A stretch of 64,000 bases of DNA. Origin: a virus (Duplodnaviria > Caudoviricetes). Positions 9,253-64,000 of the stretch are shown one piece after another (the first letter of the stretch is position 1; each line of letters begins with the position of its first letter). A model generated the notes under the pieces. The model did no database searches. It saw only the letters and a list, made by a program, of their open reading frames with translations, and was not told the origin of the DNA. The stretch lies in IMG/VR virus record IMGVR_UViG_3300017754_001850, positions 2,451 to 66,450 of that record. One strand, 5' to 3'. The translations under genes and the position numbers were made by a program.

Positions 9253-10056
9253 TTACAGACTGCATACTTCCTCCTCGTCTGATTCGCCATCAAAACAGCC
9301 GCATGGCGTCTCGATCACTTCCGTGAATAGCCGTAGCTGTGCATCATCGGCATCCGCCAGCGACTCCCATGACCAGTTCCGGCCCAGCCCCTTGACGGCT
9401 GTATTCTTCGACTGAGCATTTCGTTCCATCTCCACGGCCCTGGCGAATAAATCCGGATGCTCGCGGCGTAGCTTCAGAATCTCTCCCTTCTTCGAGGATG
9501 GGCAAAAGAAGCACGCAGACTTAACCGGAACCGGAATCCCAGCGCGAGTAATCGCCTCGATGCACTCCTTGCGTCCCCAGTTCCATTCGCGGAGTGGAAA
9601 GAAAAACTCCGTTTTTGGATCAGCCATTAAGCTGCGATGTGACTCGCCAGCGTCGTAGCCGATGGCCTGTCGGATCTTCAGGCCATCGGCTAGCGCCGGT
9701 TTCGCAAACTCCCAGTTATTGAAGAACTTGCGTTGCGGGTCAGCCTTCCATCGCTGAGAGCAGGTCTTGAATCCGTAGGCGATAGAAGGAAGCGTCTCCA
9801 TGCGAAGGCATTGCGCCTCTAGAGTTTTTGCGACGGCGTTGGGATTGTCCGCCACGGAAACCACTGTTATTTTTGGCCAGCCGATAGACGCGAGCCATTC
9901 GTCTACAACCTTCATATGGCTGTAGGTCTCCGGCTTTTCTCCGCCAGTGTCAGAAAACAGGATTAGGTCCGGCCTTTGCCCTCGCTCGTGAAACCCAACA
10001 AGCATGGCAGTTGAGTTCACGCCACCGCCATACGAAACTACCAATGGCGGCTTCAT
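9253..10056 (-). CDS. PAPS reductase-family (PP-loop) protein
   Basis: VSYGGGVNST, FSDTGGE, C..RWK, PL.EW, KSACFFCP. Start at ATG 10056 by ATGA coupling. Confidence 0.85.
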   Translation of the reverse strand: MKPPLVVSYGGGVNSTAMLVGFHERGQRPDLILFSDTGGEKPETYSHMKVVDEWLASIGWPKITVVSVADNPNAVAKTLEAQCLRMETLPSIAYGFKTCSQRWKADPQRKFFNNWEFAKPALADGLKIRQAIGYDAGESHRSLMADPKTEFFFPLREWNWGRKECIEAITRAGIPVPVKSACFFCPSSKKGEILKLRREHPDLFARAVEMERNAQSKNTAVKGLGRNWSWESLADADDAQLRLFTEVIETPCGCFDGESDEEEVCSL

Positions 10057-10391
10057 ACCTGGATCACCCAGCCCCATCGCCCGTCGCGCTGCTCGACGGT
10101 GATGGCGGCGATGGTGTAACTTGTCGGAACGCACCCAAAGAATCCGATATTGATTCCGTCGTCGGGCTTGCCGTAGGGGCAGGTGAAAAACGGGTTGCCG
10201 CACATGTTTTGCTTGTGCGTGCCGCGCTTGCCCCAGAAACACCACTCGTCTGTCTTGTTGTAGCGGTCCGGATACCACAGCGAGGTGTCGTTGTATCGCT
10301 CGTCCGGCTGCTTCCGCATCGCCCGCCAGAACCGCCGCTCGCCGTTCGCGTAGGCGGCTGATTCAGCGCGGTTGAGTCTCAATGTCTTCAT
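10053..10391 (-). CDS. hypothetical protein (truncated ASCH-like, CPYGKP motif)
   Basis: Coupled ORF; RAMRKQP...TCPYGKPDD. Confidence 0.6.
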   Translation of the reverse strand: MKTLRLNRAESAAYANGERRFWRAMRKQPDERYNDTSLWYPDRYNKTDEWCFWGKRGTHKQNMCGNPFFTCPYGKPDDGINIGFFGCVPTSYTIAAITVEQRDGRWGWVIQV

Positions 10392-49574: not shown

Positions 49575-50270
49575 ATGGCAACTTCAGGCAGCACAGTCTT
49601 CAACCCGTCCATTGTCGAGATGCTTCAAGAGGCCTATGAACGTGCTGGGCTAGAGATGCGTAGCGGCTACGACGTGACGACTGGCAGGCGGTCGTTCAAC
49701 CTGCTTATGGTTGAGTTCGCCAATATGCAACTTAACATGTGGTCAGAGGAGTCCGTGTCATTGTCGCTTGCTCAAGGCACCACGTCGTATGCGCTGGCTG
49801 CTGATACGGTAGACGTGATCGAAGGTACAATTCGCCTTAATGCGGGGAACACGACGACGCAGAGCGATCTGGTCATCAGCCGCACCAGTATGTACGACTA
49901 CATCGCAGTGCCTAACAAGTTGGTTCAAGGACAGCCAACGCAGTACGCGGTAGAGCGAGGGACGGACACCCCGACCGTGTACTTCTACCCGACGCCTGAT
50001 GGCGCTCAATCTTACACGTTTTTCTATCGGCGGCTGCGTCGGCTTCAGAACGCAGGCACTACTGGTGCAGTGACAGCCGACACGAGTTTCCGCTTCTACG
50101 ATGCGGTGATTGCCGGGTTGGCGTACCGTATCGCGTCCAAGCGCCGGGAGGCAATGGCGCTCATCCCTCAAATGAAGGCCGCGTATGATGAGGCGCTTCT
50201 CCTCGCACAAGACGAGGACAGGGATCGCGCGTCTCTCATGCTCGTGCCGTATGCCAATCAGCGATACTAA
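49575..50270 (+). CDS. head-tail adaptor / tail tubular protein A-like
   Basis: EAYERAG...RRSFNLL, PNK..QG.PTQY, GLAYRIA.K. Confidence 0.75.
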   Translation: MATSGSTVFNPSIVEMLQEAYERAGLEMRSGYDVTTGRRSFNLLMVEFANMQLNMWSEESVSLSLAQGTTSYALAADTVDVIEGTIRLNAGNTTTQSDLVISRTSMYDYIAVPNKLVQGQPTQYAVERGTDTPTVYFYPTPDGAQSYTFFYRRLRRLQNAGTTGAVTADTSFRFYDAVIAGLAYRIASKRREAMALIPQMKAAYDEALLLAQDEDRDRASLMLVPYANQRY

Positions 50271-50278
50271 AGGAAGAT

Positions 50279-50653
50279 ATGTCTCAATACACCACTCTTC
50301 AAGAAGCAAAGACCAACGAGCGGAAGCTGAAGGTCTTGATGCCGACCTACGGAATCGTCGAGTTCCCTGGGTTGACCACGCCGTTAGTCGATGACGGCAA
50401 CACTCATGAGTACGGTATCGTCACCGAGCAACGGCTCGTGATCGACGGCGAGGTGAAGCGCGCCGGGGAATACATGAACGCTGGCCTTGTGGCGCAGACG
50501 TTCGCCAACGCGCCGAGTGCGACCGAGGCGGCTATCCGCTTGGTCAGCATGAACAAGCCCGGCATGAGCCGTGCGGACGCGATCGGCGTTATCAATTCGA
50601 TCCCCGCCGTTTCGTCGGCGACGGAAGGCGTTTTGATCGAGGCGTTCAAATGA
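50279..50653 (+). CDS. hypothetical protein
   Basis: 124 aa; SD AAGGAAG. Confidence 0.7.
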   Translation: MSQYTTLQEAKTNERKLKVLMPTYGIVEFPGLTTPLVDDGNTHEYGIVTEQRLVIDGEVKRAGEYMNAGLVAQTFANAPSATEAAIRLVSMNKPGMSRADAIGVINSIPAVSSATEGVLIEAFK

Positions 50654-50850
50654 AGAAGAGTTGGCGCACGACACTGTTCGGCGTTGTCTCTTCGATCGCC
50701 TCTCTGATCGTGGCCGTTCCTGACGTTGTGGGCCACAACCCCGCTGCTGTGAAAGTAGCGGCGTTTGTCCTCGCCGGTGGGCTTGCTGGTATGGGGATGG
50801 TCAGCCGCGACAACAATAAGACCGACGAACAGTCGGGGGCCAAGAAATAG
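50650..50850 (+). CDS. putative holin (two TM segments)
   Basis: KSWRTTLFG...two hydrophobic helices...SRD and a charged tail. Confidence 0.55.
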   Translation: MKKSWRTTLFGVVSSIASLIVAVPDVVGHNPAAVKVAAFVLAGGLAGMGMVSRDNNKTDEQSGAKK

Positions 50851-51153
50851 ATGGCATACGCAAGCGGGTACAAAGCTCTCGGCATTTGCGACATTTGCGG
50901 CTTTAGCTGCAAGTACACGGAGATGCGGGAGTACGTCTTCAATCAGGTGCCTAACGGACTGAAGGTGTGCCCGACTTGCTTTGACATCGACAACCAGCAG
51001 TTGCAGGTTGGAAAGAACGCCATCCCTGAAGCCATTGCACTGTGGAGGCCGCGACCGGACAGCGGCATTCCATTTTGCCGTGGCTTTTTTGGATGGGCAC
51101 CAGTCGTTGGCCTGCAAGTTCAGGTTACACTGGGACAGGTAACGGTCACTTAA
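50851..51153 (+). CDS. zinc-ribbon structural-module protein
   Basis: CDICGF...VCPTCFD..N.QL. Confidence 0.75.
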   Translation: MAYASGYKALGICDICGFSCKYTEMREYVFNQVPNGLKVCPTCFDIDNQQLQVGKNAIPEAIALWRPRPDSGIPFCRGFFGWAPVVGLQVQVTLGQVTVT

Positions 51154-51166
51154 AAAGGAGCATGAC

Positions 51167-51265
51167 ATGAAGGGACGCGACACGAACAAACAGAAGCCGA
51201 ATGCGCAGCCAAAGGCCCCCAAGCCGATGAAGTCTGGCGGCATGGCGAAGAAAAAGGGCTGCTGA
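51167..51265 (+). CDS. 32-aa Lys-rich peptide with GG motif
   Basis: MKGRDTNKQKPNAQPKAPKPMKSGGMAKKKGC after AAGGAG. Confidence 0.55.
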   Translation: MKGRDTNKQKPNAQPKAPKPMKSGGMAKKKGC

Positions 51266-51269
51266 GTAG

Positions 51270-51890
51270 GTGACGTATACTGAGCTAGTTGCGCTGCTGC
51301 AGGATTATTTGGAGAACTCCGAAGACGGGTTCGTCGCCAATATTCCGCAGATCGTGCAGCAAGCTGAGGCGCGCATTTACAACGCCTGCCGCACTGTTGA
51401 CAGCCGCAAGACGGTCACTGATGTGGTGTCGACCAACACGATTGTCCCGCCTGAAGACTTCATTGAACCGCTGTACCTGATGGTCAATGGCACGATGATG
51501 ATGCAGCGGCAGAAATCCTACTTGCGGACGGTGTGGGGCGACACGACCGGCACGCCATCCGATTACTGCCTGGACTACACGACGCTGTACAGCGGGGCTT
51601 CGACAATCTTCATCGCGCCAGTGCCAACGGTTGAAGTGTCGTATGAACTCAGCTACGCGGGCGCTCCGTACTCGATCGTTGACCAGGAAGTCACCTACGT
51701 GTCCAACAACTTCCCTGAGGCGCTTCTGTACGGGTGCTTAGTGGAAGGATATGCGTACAACAAGGGCGAGCAGGATATGATGGCGGTGTACCAAGGCCGG
51801 TTCGATTCTGCGTTGGCGCTTCTTATCAAGTCGGCTGAGAAGTTGCAACTCACCGACGAGTATCGCAACCCGCCCGAGAGGATTCAATAG
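51270..51890 (+). CDS. head-tail connector protein
   Basis: MTYTEL...QQAE.RI, EALLYG.LVE. Confidence 0.75.
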   Translation: MTYTELVALLQDYLENSEDGFVANIPQIVQQAEARIYNACRTVDSRKTVTDVVSTNTIVPPEDFIEPLYLMVNGTMMMQRQKSYLRTVWGDTTGTPSDYCLDYTTLYSGASTIFIAPVPTVEVSYELSYAGAPYSIVDQEVTYVSNNFPEALLYGCLVEGYAYNKGEQDMMAVYQGRFDSALALLIKSAEKLQLTDEYRNPPERIQ

Positions 51891-53876: not shown

Positions 53877-55211
53877 ATGCCGAGTACCTACACAAGCAAT
53901 AACGGGCTTGAGAAGCCAGCCACAGGTGAGCAAAACAACACCTGGGGCGTGACAGTCGATACTGACTTCGACTTGATCGATCAATCCCTCGACGGCGTGG
54001 TAACCGTATCGCTGACCGGAACGTCATCGAATCTCGCGATCACGAGCGGCGCAGTATCGGATGGGCGAAACCGAGTCGTTGTGTTTAACGGTACGTTGGC
54101 TGCGAACCATACGGTGACGATCACGCCGAATGATGCGGAGAAGTGGTACTTCTTCACGAACAGCACGACAGGCGGGTTTAGCGTCATCATCAAGCAGGGT
54201 AGCGGATCTGGTACCACCGTCACGATCCTGAACAGCTACACGAAGATGGTTCGCGTGGACGGAACCGGAACGAACGCGAACGTCACTGAGGTGATGCCGA
54301 ACCCGTACTTTGGCGGGACGATGGTAGTTGGCGGCACGCTTGGCGTTGGCGGTCCTTTGAATGTGGCTGGCGCGGTGACAGGCGAGGCAGACTCCTCGTT
54401 CAACGGCGTCGACATCGGGCGCGGCGGTGGCGACATCTCCACGAATACCGCCATCGGGGACACGGCCCTTGCCGCGAATACGACCGGATCCGGGAATACA
54501 GCCATGGGCGGCTACAGCTTCTACCAGTTGACCACTGGGGTCAGCAACACCGGCATAGGCTTTGGTGCTGGATTCCAGTCGACTGGGAACTACAATACTG
54601 CCATCGGGTACGCTACACTCTACGCTTCTTCAAGCGCCAATGGCAACACGGCGCTGGGGTACACGGCGCTGTCTGTGTGTACTGGGGGGCAGAACGTCGC
54701 CCTTGGCAATACGGCTGGGTCATTGATTACGACTGGTACAGGCAACGTCATCATCGGCAATAATACCGGCGCGTCAATCGCGACGGCGACGGACAACATC
54801 CTGATCTGTGACGGATCGGGCAATATCCGCATCCGCGCTTCTTCCGCTGGCAACATCGGCATCGGTGTAGCGCCCACGCTTGGCCCGCTTGAGATGGCCT
54901 CAGGCGCTTACGTGACGGCTGGCGGAACGTGGACCAACGCCTCTGATGTGGCGTTGAAGCAGTCGTTCCAGTCTGTTGATAGCGCGTCCATTCTGGATGC
55001 GGTCGCAGCGCTGAACGTCGATAAATGGGAATACAAGGCCGAGCCTGGGGTGGTCCATATTGGACCCACGGCTCAGGACTTCAAGGCTATGTTTGGAGTC
55101 GGCGCAAATGACACGTCGATATCCACGGTAGATGCGATCGGTGTTCTTCTATCGGCAGTGAAGGAGTTGTACCAGAAGGTAAAAATTCTCTCGCAAAAAG
55201 AAACGGGCTGA
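53877..55211 (+). CDS. tail fibre with C-terminal intramolecular chaperone (peptidase S74-like)
   Basis: MPSTYT...NTWG anchor; NTA.G repeats; SD..LK...HIGPTAQDF. Confidence 0.88.
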   Translation: MPSTYTSNNGLEKPATGEQNNTWGVTVDTDFDLIDQSLDGVVTVSLTGTSSNLAITSGAVSDGRNRVVVFNGTLAANHTVTITPNDAEKWYFFTNSTTGGFSVIIKQGSGSGTTVTILNSYTKMVRVDGTGTNANVTEVMPNPYFGGTMVVGGTLGVGGPLNVAGAVTGEADSSFNGVDIGRGGGDISTNTAIGDTALAANTTGSGNTAMGGYSFYQLTTGVSNTGIGFGAGFQSTGNYNTAIGYATLYASSSANGNTALGYTALSVCTGGQNVALGNTAGSLITTGTGNVIIGNNTGASIATATDNILICDGSGNIRIRASSAGNIGIGVAPTLGPLEMASGAYVTAGGTWTNASDVALKQSFQSVDSASILDAVAALNVDKWEYKAEPGVVHIGPTAQDFKAMFGVGANDTSISTVDAIGVLLSAVKELYQKVKILSQKETG

Positions 55212-55214
55212 GAC

Positions 55215-55823
55215 TTGGAATCACTAGTCAAGGAGAAGTTCCCATCCATTTTCATCGCCGGTTCCGCCGTGATACTGGCGATTAAATACATGCCGGTGGC
55301 ATGGAAGGTGGTTAAGCAAATGTACGCTTTACTGAAAGGGCTTGAGGCCGTATCCGCCATCCCGGATCAGGTGAACGCGCTGATGAAGGAAGTCCGACCG
55401 AACGGCGGAGCATCCCTGCGGGACGCCATAGATAGGGCGTCGTCGAAGGTAGACAAGCTCAGCTTCGCGGTAGACGAATTGTCGGCGACTCACTACGTAC
55501 GGTGGAAGATGGCATACGGGGAAGCGAGTTGGCACTCGGACGCTGCCGGTAGATGCACCGCAGCGAACCATCTTCTCTGCGAAATGCTGGACGCCAACGA
55601 GTCTGATATCATCGGCAGCAACTGGAAGAACATGATTCACCCTGACGAGCAGGGTAGGGTGTTTTCTGAGTGGAATAGGATCGTTCACGATGGTGCTCAG
55701 TTCAATATGCAGACCAAGTACCAATCGGCCAACGGAGACACGATCCCTGTCCGATTGAAGGCGAACCCGATTGTCTGTCATGATAAGGTGGTCGGCTGGA
55801 TCGGCACAGCGCACAGGATCTAA
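55215..55823 (+). CDS. membrane-anchored protein with C-terminal PAS domain
   Basis: TM at about aa 11-30; RPNGGASLRD; WHSDAAG.C..AN...IIG.NW...IHPDE..RV..EW; VGWIGT. Confidence 0.8.
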   Translation: MESLVKEKFPSIFIAGSAVILAIKYMPVAWKVVKQMYALLKGLEAVSAIPDQVNALMKEVRPNGGASLRDAIDRASSKVDKLSFAVDELSATHYVRWKMAYGEASWHSDAAGRCTAANHLLCEMLDANESDIIGSNWKNMIHPDEQGRVFSEWNRIVHDGAQFNMQTKYQSANGDTIPVRLKANPIVCHDKVVGWIGTAHRI

Positions 55824-57649
55824 TGCCACTACAGAACCTACAGTTCCGCGCCGGGATCACGAAGGATATCACCGACTACTCGAATAGTGGTGGGTGGTAT
55901 GACTGCGATCTGATCCGGTTCCGAATGGGGTTCCCTGAGACGGTCGGTGGATGGCAGAAGTATTCTGGTTCCCAGTTCATAGGGTCTTGCCGGTGTCTCC
56001 ACCAATGGACGACGCTCGAAGGCATCAACTACACCGGGGTTGGGACTGAGTCTAAACTCTACGTCGAGACTGGTGGTGTCTACTTTGACATTACACCAAT
56101 CCGTAGAACGGTGACGCTAGGCGTGGATCCGCTGGAGACTGAAGCTATCGGCACGAACCGGGTTATCGTCACTGACGTGGCGAATGGGTGCGTGCTTGGC
56201 GATTACGTGACGTTCTCAGGTGCGACGGCTTTCGATAACTACACGATCGGGATGCTGAATACCGAGCATGTCGTCGCTGAGGTCGTGGACGATGACACCT
56301 ACGTGATCGAGATTACCGGGGCGGTGTCTGCCGGTGCCGGTGTCACTGGCGGTGGAGCGGCGGTGGTAGCCGCGTATCAGATCAACGTCGGTCCGAATAC
56401 CCAGGTGTTTGGTACCGGGTGGGGAACTGGAACGTGGGGGCGTGGCACATGGGGATCGGCGTCGACATCTGGTGTCAGCACTGGTCAGCTTCGCGTGTGG
56501 TCGATGGACAACTTCGGGGAAGACCTCGTTGCCTGCGTTCGCGGCGGCGGCATCTACTACTGGACGGCGAGTACAGGAACGAGTGTTCGTGCTGTGGCGC
56601 TATCCGATCTGGCTGGGTCGAATCAGGCACCCACGATTGGGGCGGAGGTATTCGTATCCGATCTGAACCGATCGATCGTTGTCCTTGGTGCTAATGAGAA
56701 TGGTTCGGCGACACAGGATCTAATGCTGATTCGGTGGTGCTCATCGGAGGACGCCACTGAATGGGAACCTACGCGAGAGACGACGGCTGGAAGCTATCGG
56801 CTGTCGTCGGGGTCGCAGATCATCACGGGTATCCGCGCTCGCGAAGAGACGGCTATCTGGACGGACAAGACGCTATTCACGATGCAGTTCGTTGGGCCTC
56901 CGTATACGTTTGGGTTCACACTGATGGGCGAAAACGTGTCTATCGTTGGGCCGAACGCGGCGGCTGAGGCGAGAAACACCCTATTCTGGATGGACATTAA
57001 CGAGTTCAAAGTGTACACCGGCAGCGTGTCTTCGATGCCATGCACGGTGCAGAACTACGTGTTCGACGACATCAACCTGGACCAGCGGTACAAGATCGTC
57101 TGCGGAACGAACGTCCGATACAACGAAATCTGGTGGTTCTACCCGAGCGCCTCGTCCAGTGAGAACGACCGATACGTGACATTCAACTACATCGACGGGG
57201 TATGGGCGATCGGTTCACTTGAGCGGACGTTCTGGCATGACACTTCATTCTCAGGTGGGTACCCGATCGCAACGAACGATGGGTACATCTACATCCACGA
57301 TTACGGTACGACCGCTGATGGTGAGGCGATGGAACCGTTCATTGAAGGATCTGACCTTGCGGTGAGCGAAGGGAACCAGTATGCCTTCATCAAGCGGCTG
57401 ATCCCGGACATTCGGTTTAACGGGCAGAATGAGACGCCGGTAGCGTCGTTCGAGATCCTTCGGCGGAACTTCCCAGGGCAGAGTTTTTCGGTTGGGTACA
57501 CGTCCGAGGTGTTGTCCGATACGACAGAGAAGTTCGTTCGCGTGCGTGGGCGGCAATTTGCGCTTCGGGTGTCGTCGAGTTCAGCGAACATGGGGTGGAG
57601 TCTTGGAACACAGAGGCTTGAGATCAGGCCGGATGGGCAGAAGGCATGA
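55823..57649 (+). CDS. tail tubular B / P22 gp10-like DNA-stabilisation protein
   Basis: W.D.D.IRFR.G.PE..GGW, WS.DNFGEDL, EIWWFYPS, RVRGRQ. Confidence 0.85.
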   Translation: MPLQNLQFRAGITKDITDYSNSGGWYDCDLIRFRMGFPETVGGWQKYSGSQFIGSCRCLHQWTTLEGINYTGVGTESKLYVETGGVYFDITPIRRTVTLGVDPLETEAIGTNRVIVTDVANGCVLGDYVTFSGATAFDNYTIGMLNTEHVVAEVVDDDTYVIEITGAVSAGAGVTGGGAAVVAAYQINVGPNTQVFGTGWGTGTWGRGTWGSASTSGVSTGQLRVWSMDNFGEDLVACVRGGGIYYWTASTGTSVRAVALSDLAGSNQAPTIGAEVFVSDLNRSIVVLGANENGSATQDLMLIRWCSSEDATEWEPTRETTAGSYRLSSGSQIITGIRAREETAIWTDKTLFTMQFVGPPYTFGFTLMGENVSIVGPNAAAEARNTLFWMDINEFKVYTGSVSSMPCTVQNYVFDDINLDQRYKIVCGTNVRYNEIWWFYPSASSSENDRYVTFNYIDGVWAIGSLERTFWHDTSFSGGYPIATNDGYIYIHDYGTTADGEAMEPFIEGSDLAVSEGNQYAFIKRLIPDIRFNGQNETPVASFEILRRNFPGQSFSVGYTSEVLSDTTEKFVRVRGRQFALRVSSSSANMGWSLGTQRLEIRPDGQKA

Positions 57650-63484: not shown

Positions 63485-64000
63485 ATGGAAAAGAAAATCT
63501 ACGTCCCTGAACTCGGAGCAAATGTAGCCTACGACGACTCGTGGCCTGCCGAGTACGTGCAGCAGATGGTGTCGAAGTTGATCCGCGAGAAGGGGGCGCA
63601 GCAAGCGCCTCAGCCCAAGCCGGAAACAAACGCACTAGGCCACCTCTGGGAAGCACAGAAAGGTGTGTGGTCTGGAGCGGCGGAAGGTGTCGCTGCGATC
63701 CCAACTGGACTCGGCGGAATCCTCGACAATCAAACGCTAAAGGCCATGGGCGAGGCGATTCGCAATAATCGCATCACCGAGAACTTCAAAGCGAATCCAG
63801 GCTACGAGGATAGCATCGCACGGCAGGGCGGCGAGATTGCGGGGAACCTGCTCACGATGCTTGGCCCCGGCATGGCGGCGAATGCGCTGAAGGCTCCGGC
63901 ATTAGCCGCTCGGCTGGCTGGTCCAGCTATGGGTATGCTACAAGGGTCTTCGGAGCAGGTACAGCGAGCGCAGCAGAACCGCGCCCAAGGCATGGAAGTA
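63485..64000 (+). CDS. N-terminus of a large internal virion protein, 3'-truncated
   Basis: Translated by hand: MEKKIYVPELGANVAYDDSWP...; open to the window end. Confidence 0.75.
   Translation, partial: MEKKIYVPELGANVAYDDSWPAEYVQQMVSKLIREKGAQQAPQPKPETNALGHLWEAQKGVWSGAAEGVAAIPTGLGGILDNQTLKAMGEAIRNNRITENFKANPGYEDSIARQGGEIAGNLLTMLGPGMAANALKAPALAARLAGPAMGMLQGSSEQVQRAQQNRAQGMEV

Follow-up and report, generated by a model that had tools for sequence, protein, structure and literature searches.

The question raised by this locus is what a membrane-anchored PAS sensor protein does among the tail genes of a phage, and whether its architecture, its relatives, and their neighbors point to a role in the virion, in host signaling, or in lysis. 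The stretch of DNA analyzed (the window, 64 kb) comes from a complete record of 66,450 bp that carries direct terminal repeats; 2,450 bases of the record lie outside the window. Morphogenesis genes include those for two SU10-adaptor-like proteins, a portal, a large terminase, and tail fibers. Because the nearest cultured relatives by large terminase (Pelagibacter phages HTVC027P/HTVC023P, DSL-LC04, and some cyanophages) are only ~40% identical, the source is classified by sequence comparison as an uncultured aquatic podovirus-like phage. Two further aspects of this genome can be mentioned. ORFs near the two ends of the window (63485 to 64000 and 17 to 1843, the latter 608 aa) match the C-terminal part of 1,774- to 1,812-aa proteins in loci L003 and L004, which carry relatives of the gene studied here, and also match PHROGs of 1,600 to 2,100 aa; they probably represent pieces of a single giant virion gene spanning the record ends. 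A PAPS-reductase-like gene in the early region (9253 to 10278, minus strand; phrog_424, E 1.7e-35) is an auxiliary metabolic or DNA-modification gene.

The gene of interest and its immediate neighbors are as follows.

53877 to 55211, plus strand: tail fiber/spike gene of the same operon, directly upstream; its product has a Peptidase_S74 chaperone domain and matches PHROG tail fiber/spike families.
55215 to 55823, plus strand: membrane-anchored PAS protein gene, with a TTG start, 202 aa, and stop codon TAA.
55823 to 57649, plus strand: virion structural protein gene directly downstream, 608 aa (phrog_3287, E 2.8e-64).

An ORF at 55215 to 55823 had been proposed in the initial annotation, and exactly these coordinates were recovered on the plus strand. 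Its placement between the tail fiber gene and another gene, then called gp10-like, was likewise borne out, with the downstream neighbor now matched to the PHROG labeled “virion structural protein.” The TTG of the PAS gene lies 3 nt past the stop codon of the tail fiber gene, and this start is supported by the conservation of residues 1 to 30 in homologs down to 45% identity. At the other end, the TAA and the ATG of the following gene share bases (TAATG), an arrangement that makes the two genes translationally coupled. Promoter- and terminator-like sites near the PAS gene were no commoner than in shuffled sequence, which, together with the tight spacing and the TAATG overlap, places the gene in the late structural operon. 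In the window, no small membrane gene follows the PAS gene, and it adjoins no recognizable lysis gene, so that by position it does not belong to a lysis cassette. Among 50,697 GenBank phages, megablast with 5 kb around the gene found no match, nor did tblastn with the PAS protein and three diverged PAS-fused relatives.

Three elements could be mapped along the protein.

55245 to 55301, plus strand: single N-terminal transmembrane helix, residues about 11 to 29 (hydropathy scan; predicted N-out/C-in).
55389 to 55436, plus strand: family-defining motif EVRPNGGASLRDAIDR, residues 59 to 74 (phrog_9869 match, E 7.6e-6; invariant residues; AlphaFold2 model).
55512 to 55820, plus strand: complete PAS domain, predicted to be cytoplasmic, residues about 100 to 202 (Pfam PAS_3/PAS/PAS_4; AlphaFold2; Foldseek).

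The PAS assignment was obtained by several routes. In Pfam, PAS_3 (PF08447) matched residues 118 to 199 at 47.5 bits against a cutoff of 25.6 (E 2.2e-12), PAS (PF00989) matched at 37.2 bits against 22.6 (E 3.4e-9), and PAS_4 matched at 26.0 against 23.1. An AlphaFold2 model built from a 135-sequence alignment (mean pLDDT, 81) gave residues 100 to 202 a pLDDT of 92 to 98, with five strands and intervening helices in PAS order. When this model was compared to the PDB with Foldseek, many solved PAS domains were returned at a probability of 1.00, with target-length-normalized TM-scores up to 0.84, including SO_1695, ARNT PAS-B, Aer (FAD), FixL (heme), LOV, and ligand-free PAS domains. Assignment of a cofactor was dropped, as the fold matches were generic, none was close enough, and diagnostic residues could not be assigned. 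In the same model, two long helices (residues 26 to 59 and 65 to 98) flank the PNGG loop in a helix-loop-helix, with EVRPNGGASLRDAIDR supplying the loop and the beginning of the second helix. The chain ends with the PAS domain, and no output domain follows.

The single transmembrane domain (TMD) is moderately hydrophobic and contains a Lys. Across 131 family members, the 15 aa before the TMD hold a mean of 0.6 Lys plus Arg residues versus 3.4 after it, a difference of about six-fold. By the positive-inside rule, the predicted orientation is N-out/C-in, which would put the PAS domain in the cytoplasm. The initial annotation had described one N-terminal transmembrane segment, a “coiled segment,” and a complete PAS fold lacking an output domain, and had staked its reading on a PAS match in profile searches. 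That match was found, the fold is confirmed by Pfam, AlphaFold2, and Foldseek, the hydropathy scan puts the one transmembrane segment at residues 11 to 29, and the coiled segment corresponds to the two long helices around the PNGG loop.

The N-terminal half of the protein defines a family. [quoted passage not shown] Among 135 PAS-fused homologs, N63, G64, G65, S67, and D70 show no variation, and at least 90% of the sequences keep P62 and R69. Twelve full-length metagenomic homologs are 44 to 91% identical to the window protein, and more distant homologs on viral contigs (24 to 28% identity) keep the order TMD, motif, PAS. High-GC contigs encode a 112- to 115-aa form that ends just after the motif. 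A profile built from the N-terminal 100 residues found 636 proteins of 54 to 209 aa, mostly 87 to 140 aa without a Pfam domain, and, when searched against 1.84 billion representatives, returned 2,564 clusters at 50% identity (E ≤ 1e-3); the clade of the window protein was recovered in these searches. Across the family, most members have 80 to 140 aa. Many of the short-form members come from Streptomyces and other Actinobacteria, and the longer members are nearly all PAS_3 fusions. Fusion to PAS occurs in about one-fifth of the family members listed, comprising at least 30 clusters at 40% identity. An ESM Atlas search with residues 1 to 100 gave no usable match. The window protein is a member of the PAS-bearing branch of this large, uncurated, phage-only, one-TMD “PNGGSS-LRD” family.

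Some members carry additional domains. In two diverged clusters, P0124 (L005, 9935 to 10954) and P0149, the TMD, motif, and PAS domain are followed by a response-regulator receiver domain (PF00072), which suggests phosphorelay input into the same TMD-motif-PAS module. P0140, a metagenomic protein of 320 aa, starts at the motif without a TMD in the called protein, has a PAS-like stretch recognized by eye, and ends in a C-terminal TMD and coiled coil with a weak Rz match (PF03245, E 4.7e-4, below the gathering cutoff); it is either a real i-spanin fusion or a frameshifted gene call joining two neighboring lysis genes.

Of special interest for function is where family members are found. A tblastn search with a short-form Streptomyces member matched three different annotated phages, and all three matches adjoin lysis genes. 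TurkishDelight has endolysin gp35, holin gp36, and family member gp37 in that order; mu1/6 has the same arrangement, with endolysin gp50, holin gp51, and family member gp52; and in Thermobifida phage P1312 the family member overlaps the start of the amidase gene. For a broader neighborhood survey, 200 loci were retrieved, with crude ORF calling. Pfam domains encoded within two genes on each side of short-form loci included Amidase_2 (4), NlpC/P60 (2), GH25, VanY, Peptidase_M15_4, two holin families, and tail fiber domains. Around PAS-fused loci the neighbors included Phage_lysozyme (2), Peptidase_M15_3, Peptidase_M15_4 (2), Amidase_2, VanY, CHAP, and a 3-TM holin, along with portals, terminases, methylases, RecA, and an integrase. 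A recognizable wall hydrolase lay within two genes of only about one-tenth of the PAS-fused loci, a frequency not clearly above chance.

The gene directly downstream was then scored after dereplication of loci at 60% identity, using genes at least 3 genes away as controls. The next same-strand gene encoded a small transmembrane protein at 7 of 16 short-form loci versus 1 of 148 controls (p 1.6e-7), and at 9 of 65 PAS-fused loci versus 27 of 540 controls (odds ratio, 3.1; p 0.0097). Many of these downstream neighbors resemble holins with 2 to 4 TMDs, and overlaps of a few bases with the family gene are frequent; the one in L189 was judged by eye to be SAR-type lysozyme-like. At some loci (L006, P1312, and L189), the family member stands directly before the endolysin gene with no obvious holin between them. 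A statement in the initial annotation, that PNGGxSLRD marks small membrane proteins beside lysis genes, is thereby upheld both by all three annotated phages and by the metagenomic downstream excess. A different setting was seen at L003 (8503 to 9339) and L004 (48% identity), where the PAS gene directly follows a tyrosine integrase gene and is convergent with a gene for a 1,812-aa virion protein. The relatives thus include temperate phages, and at these two loci the PAS gene has left the tail module.

In the window phage, the only small multi-TMD protein of the late region is encoded 4.4 kb upstream of the PAS gene.

50650 to 50850, plus strand: 66-aa holin-like protein with two TMDs (9 to 27 and 33 to 51) and a charged C terminus (hydropathy scan).

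In the low-GC phage contigs L091/L096, whose PAS-family protein shares ~23% identity with that of the window, the PAS-family gene is immediately followed by a gene whose product is 32% identical to the 66-aa protein (pairwise E 1e-11). The L091 order is PAS-family gene, two-TMD gene, lipoprotein-signal protein, 84-aa gene, second lipoprotein-signal protein, and peptidoglycan-binding protein, with the lipoprotein-type signals identified by inspecting translations by eye. The N terminus of the last protein gave matches to the peptidoglycan-binding domain of endolysins with known structures, among them phiKZ gp144, and the gene order as a whole reads as a lysis cassette. The 66-aa and PAS gene families therefore occur together in two very different phages; the genes are adjacent in L091 and separated by 4.4 kb here. 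A locus search with the 66-aa family recovered only close relatives. The 66-aa protein is most likely the partner of the PAS protein, a presumptive assignment under which it would serve as the holin.

The enzyme that such a holin would release was also sought. Searches for seven common wall-hydrolase Pfam families in six frames of the whole 66-kb genome found no endolysin, nor did Pfam scans of nearly all ORFs of at least 90 aa, and a phmmer search of PDB sequences with the 124-aa protein encoded beside the holin-like gene gave no match. The lysis enzyme of this phage is either of a new kind or a segment of some large virion protein. The holin-like gene itself lies in a three-gene insert bracketed by paralogous SU10-adaptor-like genes (49575 to 50270 and 51270 to 51890; whole region, 49575 to 51890), and the insert encodes the 124-aa protein without matches, the 66-aa two-TMD protein, and a 100-aa protein with two CxxC pairs (zinc-ribbon-like).

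One-TMD proteins that work together with a small holin-like partner have been described in mycobacteriophages. In cluster F1, the one-TMD N-out/C-in protein LysF1b and the two-TMD holin-like protein LysF1a are needed for efficient lysis (Pollenz and co-workers, PMC13056207). LysF1b is Girr gp35 or NormanBulbieJr gp33 (PMC13056207; bioRxiv 10.64898/2026.08.27.747656). The gene for the D29 homolog LysA2b (gp30) lies among minor tail genes, far from the lysins, and LysF1b/LysA2b alone are reported not to be cytotoxic (bioRxiv 10.64898/2026.08.27.747656). Many LysF1b/LysA2b homologs, including Girr gp35, are labeled “minor tail protein” by position alone, likely a misannotation. Likely misannotated as well is Thermobifida P1312_040, a 147-aa PNGG-type membrane protein labeled “sensory protein kinase CreC.”

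The LysF1b family has the consensus EQVxNTHDTNMRDDID at the same place after the TMD. In profile comparisons, hhalign aligned this motif in register with EVRPNGGSSLRDAIDR at 59% (P 9e-5), and with the 135-sequence alignment it did so at 65.5% (P 6e-5), the motifs again in register; an actinophage-dominated 243-sequence alignment gave 26%, with the TMD alone aligned. Column-shuffled controls (70, for two of the three query alignments) reached at most 7.6%. D29 gp30 matches DUF2746 (PF10874) at 26.4 bits against a cutoff of 23, and the DUF2746 model matched neither the window protein (E ≤ 1) nor anything in the whole genome (E ≤ 10), just as the PNGG-family HMM found no match to D29 gp30. Homology to LysF1b/LysA2b is only suggestive at the level of sequence. 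Because the direct HMM tests were negative and one alignment covered the TMD only, LysF1b/LysA2b is the closest known working model for the window protein, not its family.

By analogy with this model, we place roughly even odds (about 50%) on the window protein being a PAS-gated one-TMD lysis-timing regulator that acts on the 66-aa holin-like protein and has been displaced into the tail module. It would be a bitopic inner-membrane protein with a short N terminus outside, one TMD, and the rest in the cytoplasm, where a stalk of helix, PNGG turn, and helix would be capped by the PAS sensor domain. Late in infection, the protein would build up in the membrane and set the trigger time of a small multi-TMD holin-like partner, here most likely the two-TMD protein encoded at 50650 to 50850, in the manner of LysF1b/LysA2b. 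Through the PAS domain, this control would depend on a cytoplasmic signal, for example redox or energy state, or a small ligand. Counting against this reading are the lack of a recognizable lysis gene beside the PAS gene here, the failure to recognize an endolysin in the genome, the varied contexts of PAS-fused members, and the only suggestive homology to LysF1b/LysA2b. The initial annotation had suggested a signal-responsive lysis-timing or antiholin component. The lysis-timing part is the best-supported reading, by context and analogy, and an antiholin of the T4 RI kind is at odds with the predicted cytoplasmic location of the PAS domain. “Holin-like,” also used there for the PAS protein, is too loose a term, as one TMD, an N-out/C-in orientation, and long cytoplasmic helices are the topology of LysF1b/LysA2b and not of a canonical holin.

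Several other explanations were weighed against a lysis-timing regulator. An accessory (“moron”) gene altering host signaling, whose PAS domain either heterodimerizes with host PAS histidine kinases or other PAS proteins as a decoy (as the initial annotation had also suggested for host PAS kinases) or reports a host signal to a different phage process, is unlikely but draws on several observations: the contexts of PAS-fused genes are scattered in a way typical of mobile accessory genes (integrase in L003/L004, helicase in L008, and portal, terminase, or methylase elsewhere), the slot after a tail fiber gene is a classic moron site, the receiver domains of P0124 and P0149 tie the family to two-component phosphorelays, and heterodimerizing PAS domains (ARNT PAS-B) are among the nearest solved folds. 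Left unexplained are the TMD and PNGG module common to hundreds of PAS-less, short lysis-cassette proteins, the downstream excess of small membrane proteins, and the link to the 66-aa family; the PAS gene also lacks a separate promoter and shows translational coupling within a late operon. That the window protein is itself the hole-forming holin, one-TMD and class III-like with a sensor domain, would suit a small, bitopic, late-expressed membrane protein and the loci in which a relative immediately precedes the endolysin with no other obvious holin between (L006, P1312, and L189). We consider this quite improbable, given that the family gene usually has a separate multi-TMD holin-like gene beside it, that the TMD is only moderately hydrophobic and has a Lys, and that the analogs LysF1b/LysA2b alone are reported not to be cytotoxic.

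The remaining two alternatives take their cue from location. A membrane protein that excludes superinfecting phages or blocks injection could be small, reside in the inner membrane, and be encoded beside tail genes, and some relatives do occur in temperate phages next to an integrase; the bulk of the window protein is predicted to be cytoplasmic and not periplasmic, however, no integrase-like gene was present among the window ORFs scanned, and the family is associated with lysis genes, making such a role very unlikely. For a virion or tail-assembly component the argument is position only, the gene being coupled between tail fiber and virion structural genes. Against this stand the architecture of a TMD plus a cytoplasmic PAS domain, the 48%-identity homolog outside the structural module and beside an integrase (L003/L004), the many non-structural contexts of more distant homologs, and the example of LysF1b genes, widely called “minor tail protein” from position alone; a structural role is accordingly the hardest of these to credit and can be regarded as highly improbable.

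Apart from T4-type lysis inhibition, lysis timing is, to our knowledge, generally treated as an autonomous holin clock, and it sets burst size and phage fitness. No paper linking a PAS domain to a phage lysis protein was found in the literature searched. We tentatively propose, at somewhat less than even odds, that the PAS-fused proteins are widespread, undescribed lysis regulators whose cytoplasmic PAS domain, in some cases with a receiver domain, gates lysis by a chemical, redox, or phosphorelay signal. A sensor in a lysis-cassette membrane protein, if real, would mean that many uncultured phages read the internal state of the host before lysis, and would extend the one-TMD lysis-regulator concept of LysF1b/LysA2b beyond mycobacteriophages. 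A TMD plus PNGGSSLRD could serve as a sequence signature for finding such genes. The locus also carries a warning that small membrane genes among tail genes can be dispersed lysis genes and not “minor tail proteins,” and a PAS-gated lysis switch could be used as a ligand-controlled lysis tool.

Known systems share individual parts of the proposed regulator. Aer-type proteins (PDB 8dik, among the top fold matches at a probability of 1.00) also tether a cytoplasmic PAS fold to the inner membrane. Their PAS domains are 21 to 23% identical to that of the window protein, in which no FAD-binding signature was assigned, and Aer signals via HAMP and kinase-control modules, both of which the window protein lacks. 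VqmA-Phage of vibriophage VP882 is a PAS sensor that couples a small-molecule signal to a lysis decision; it is a soluble transcription factor whose DNA-binding output targets the lysogeny switch. The window protein, by contrast, is anchored in the membrane, lacks an output domain, and is the product of a late operon. In T4, holin T and its antiholins RI and RIII follow a similar idea, with a phage-encoded sensor domain shifting the time of holin triggering on a signal. Sensing by RI takes place in the periplasm, while the window protein has a PAS domain predicted to be cytoplasmic; the two have no relation in sequence or topology, and Pfam and PHROG scans of the window protein showed no similarity to RI-type antiholins.

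Within its own family, the window protein can be compared to TurkishDelight gp37, mu1/6 gp52, and P1312_040 (phrog_9869), which have a homologous TMD-plus-motif module. These actinophage short forms have a Pro/Gly-rich insert before the motif, end soon after it without a PAS domain, and directly adjoin a holin or endolysin gene, which the window gene does not. LysF1b/LysA2b differ in other respects, with N-[ST]-H-x-x-N where the window family has PNGGSS, a short tail of high charge, lacking any sensor domain, in place of a full PAS domain, and mycolata as hosts versus a probably Gram-negative aquatic host for the window phage. In common with the window protein, they have a single N-terminal TMD, an N-out/C-in orientation (predicted for the window protein), and a long helical cytoplasmic part, with the motif xVxNTHDTNMRDDID at the same place after the TMD as EVRPNGGSSLRDAIDR. 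They also have a small two-TMD holin-like partner, for which the protein encoded at 50650 to 50850 is the candidate here, and in D29, as in the window phage, the regulator gene lies among tail genes, in D29 far from the lysins.
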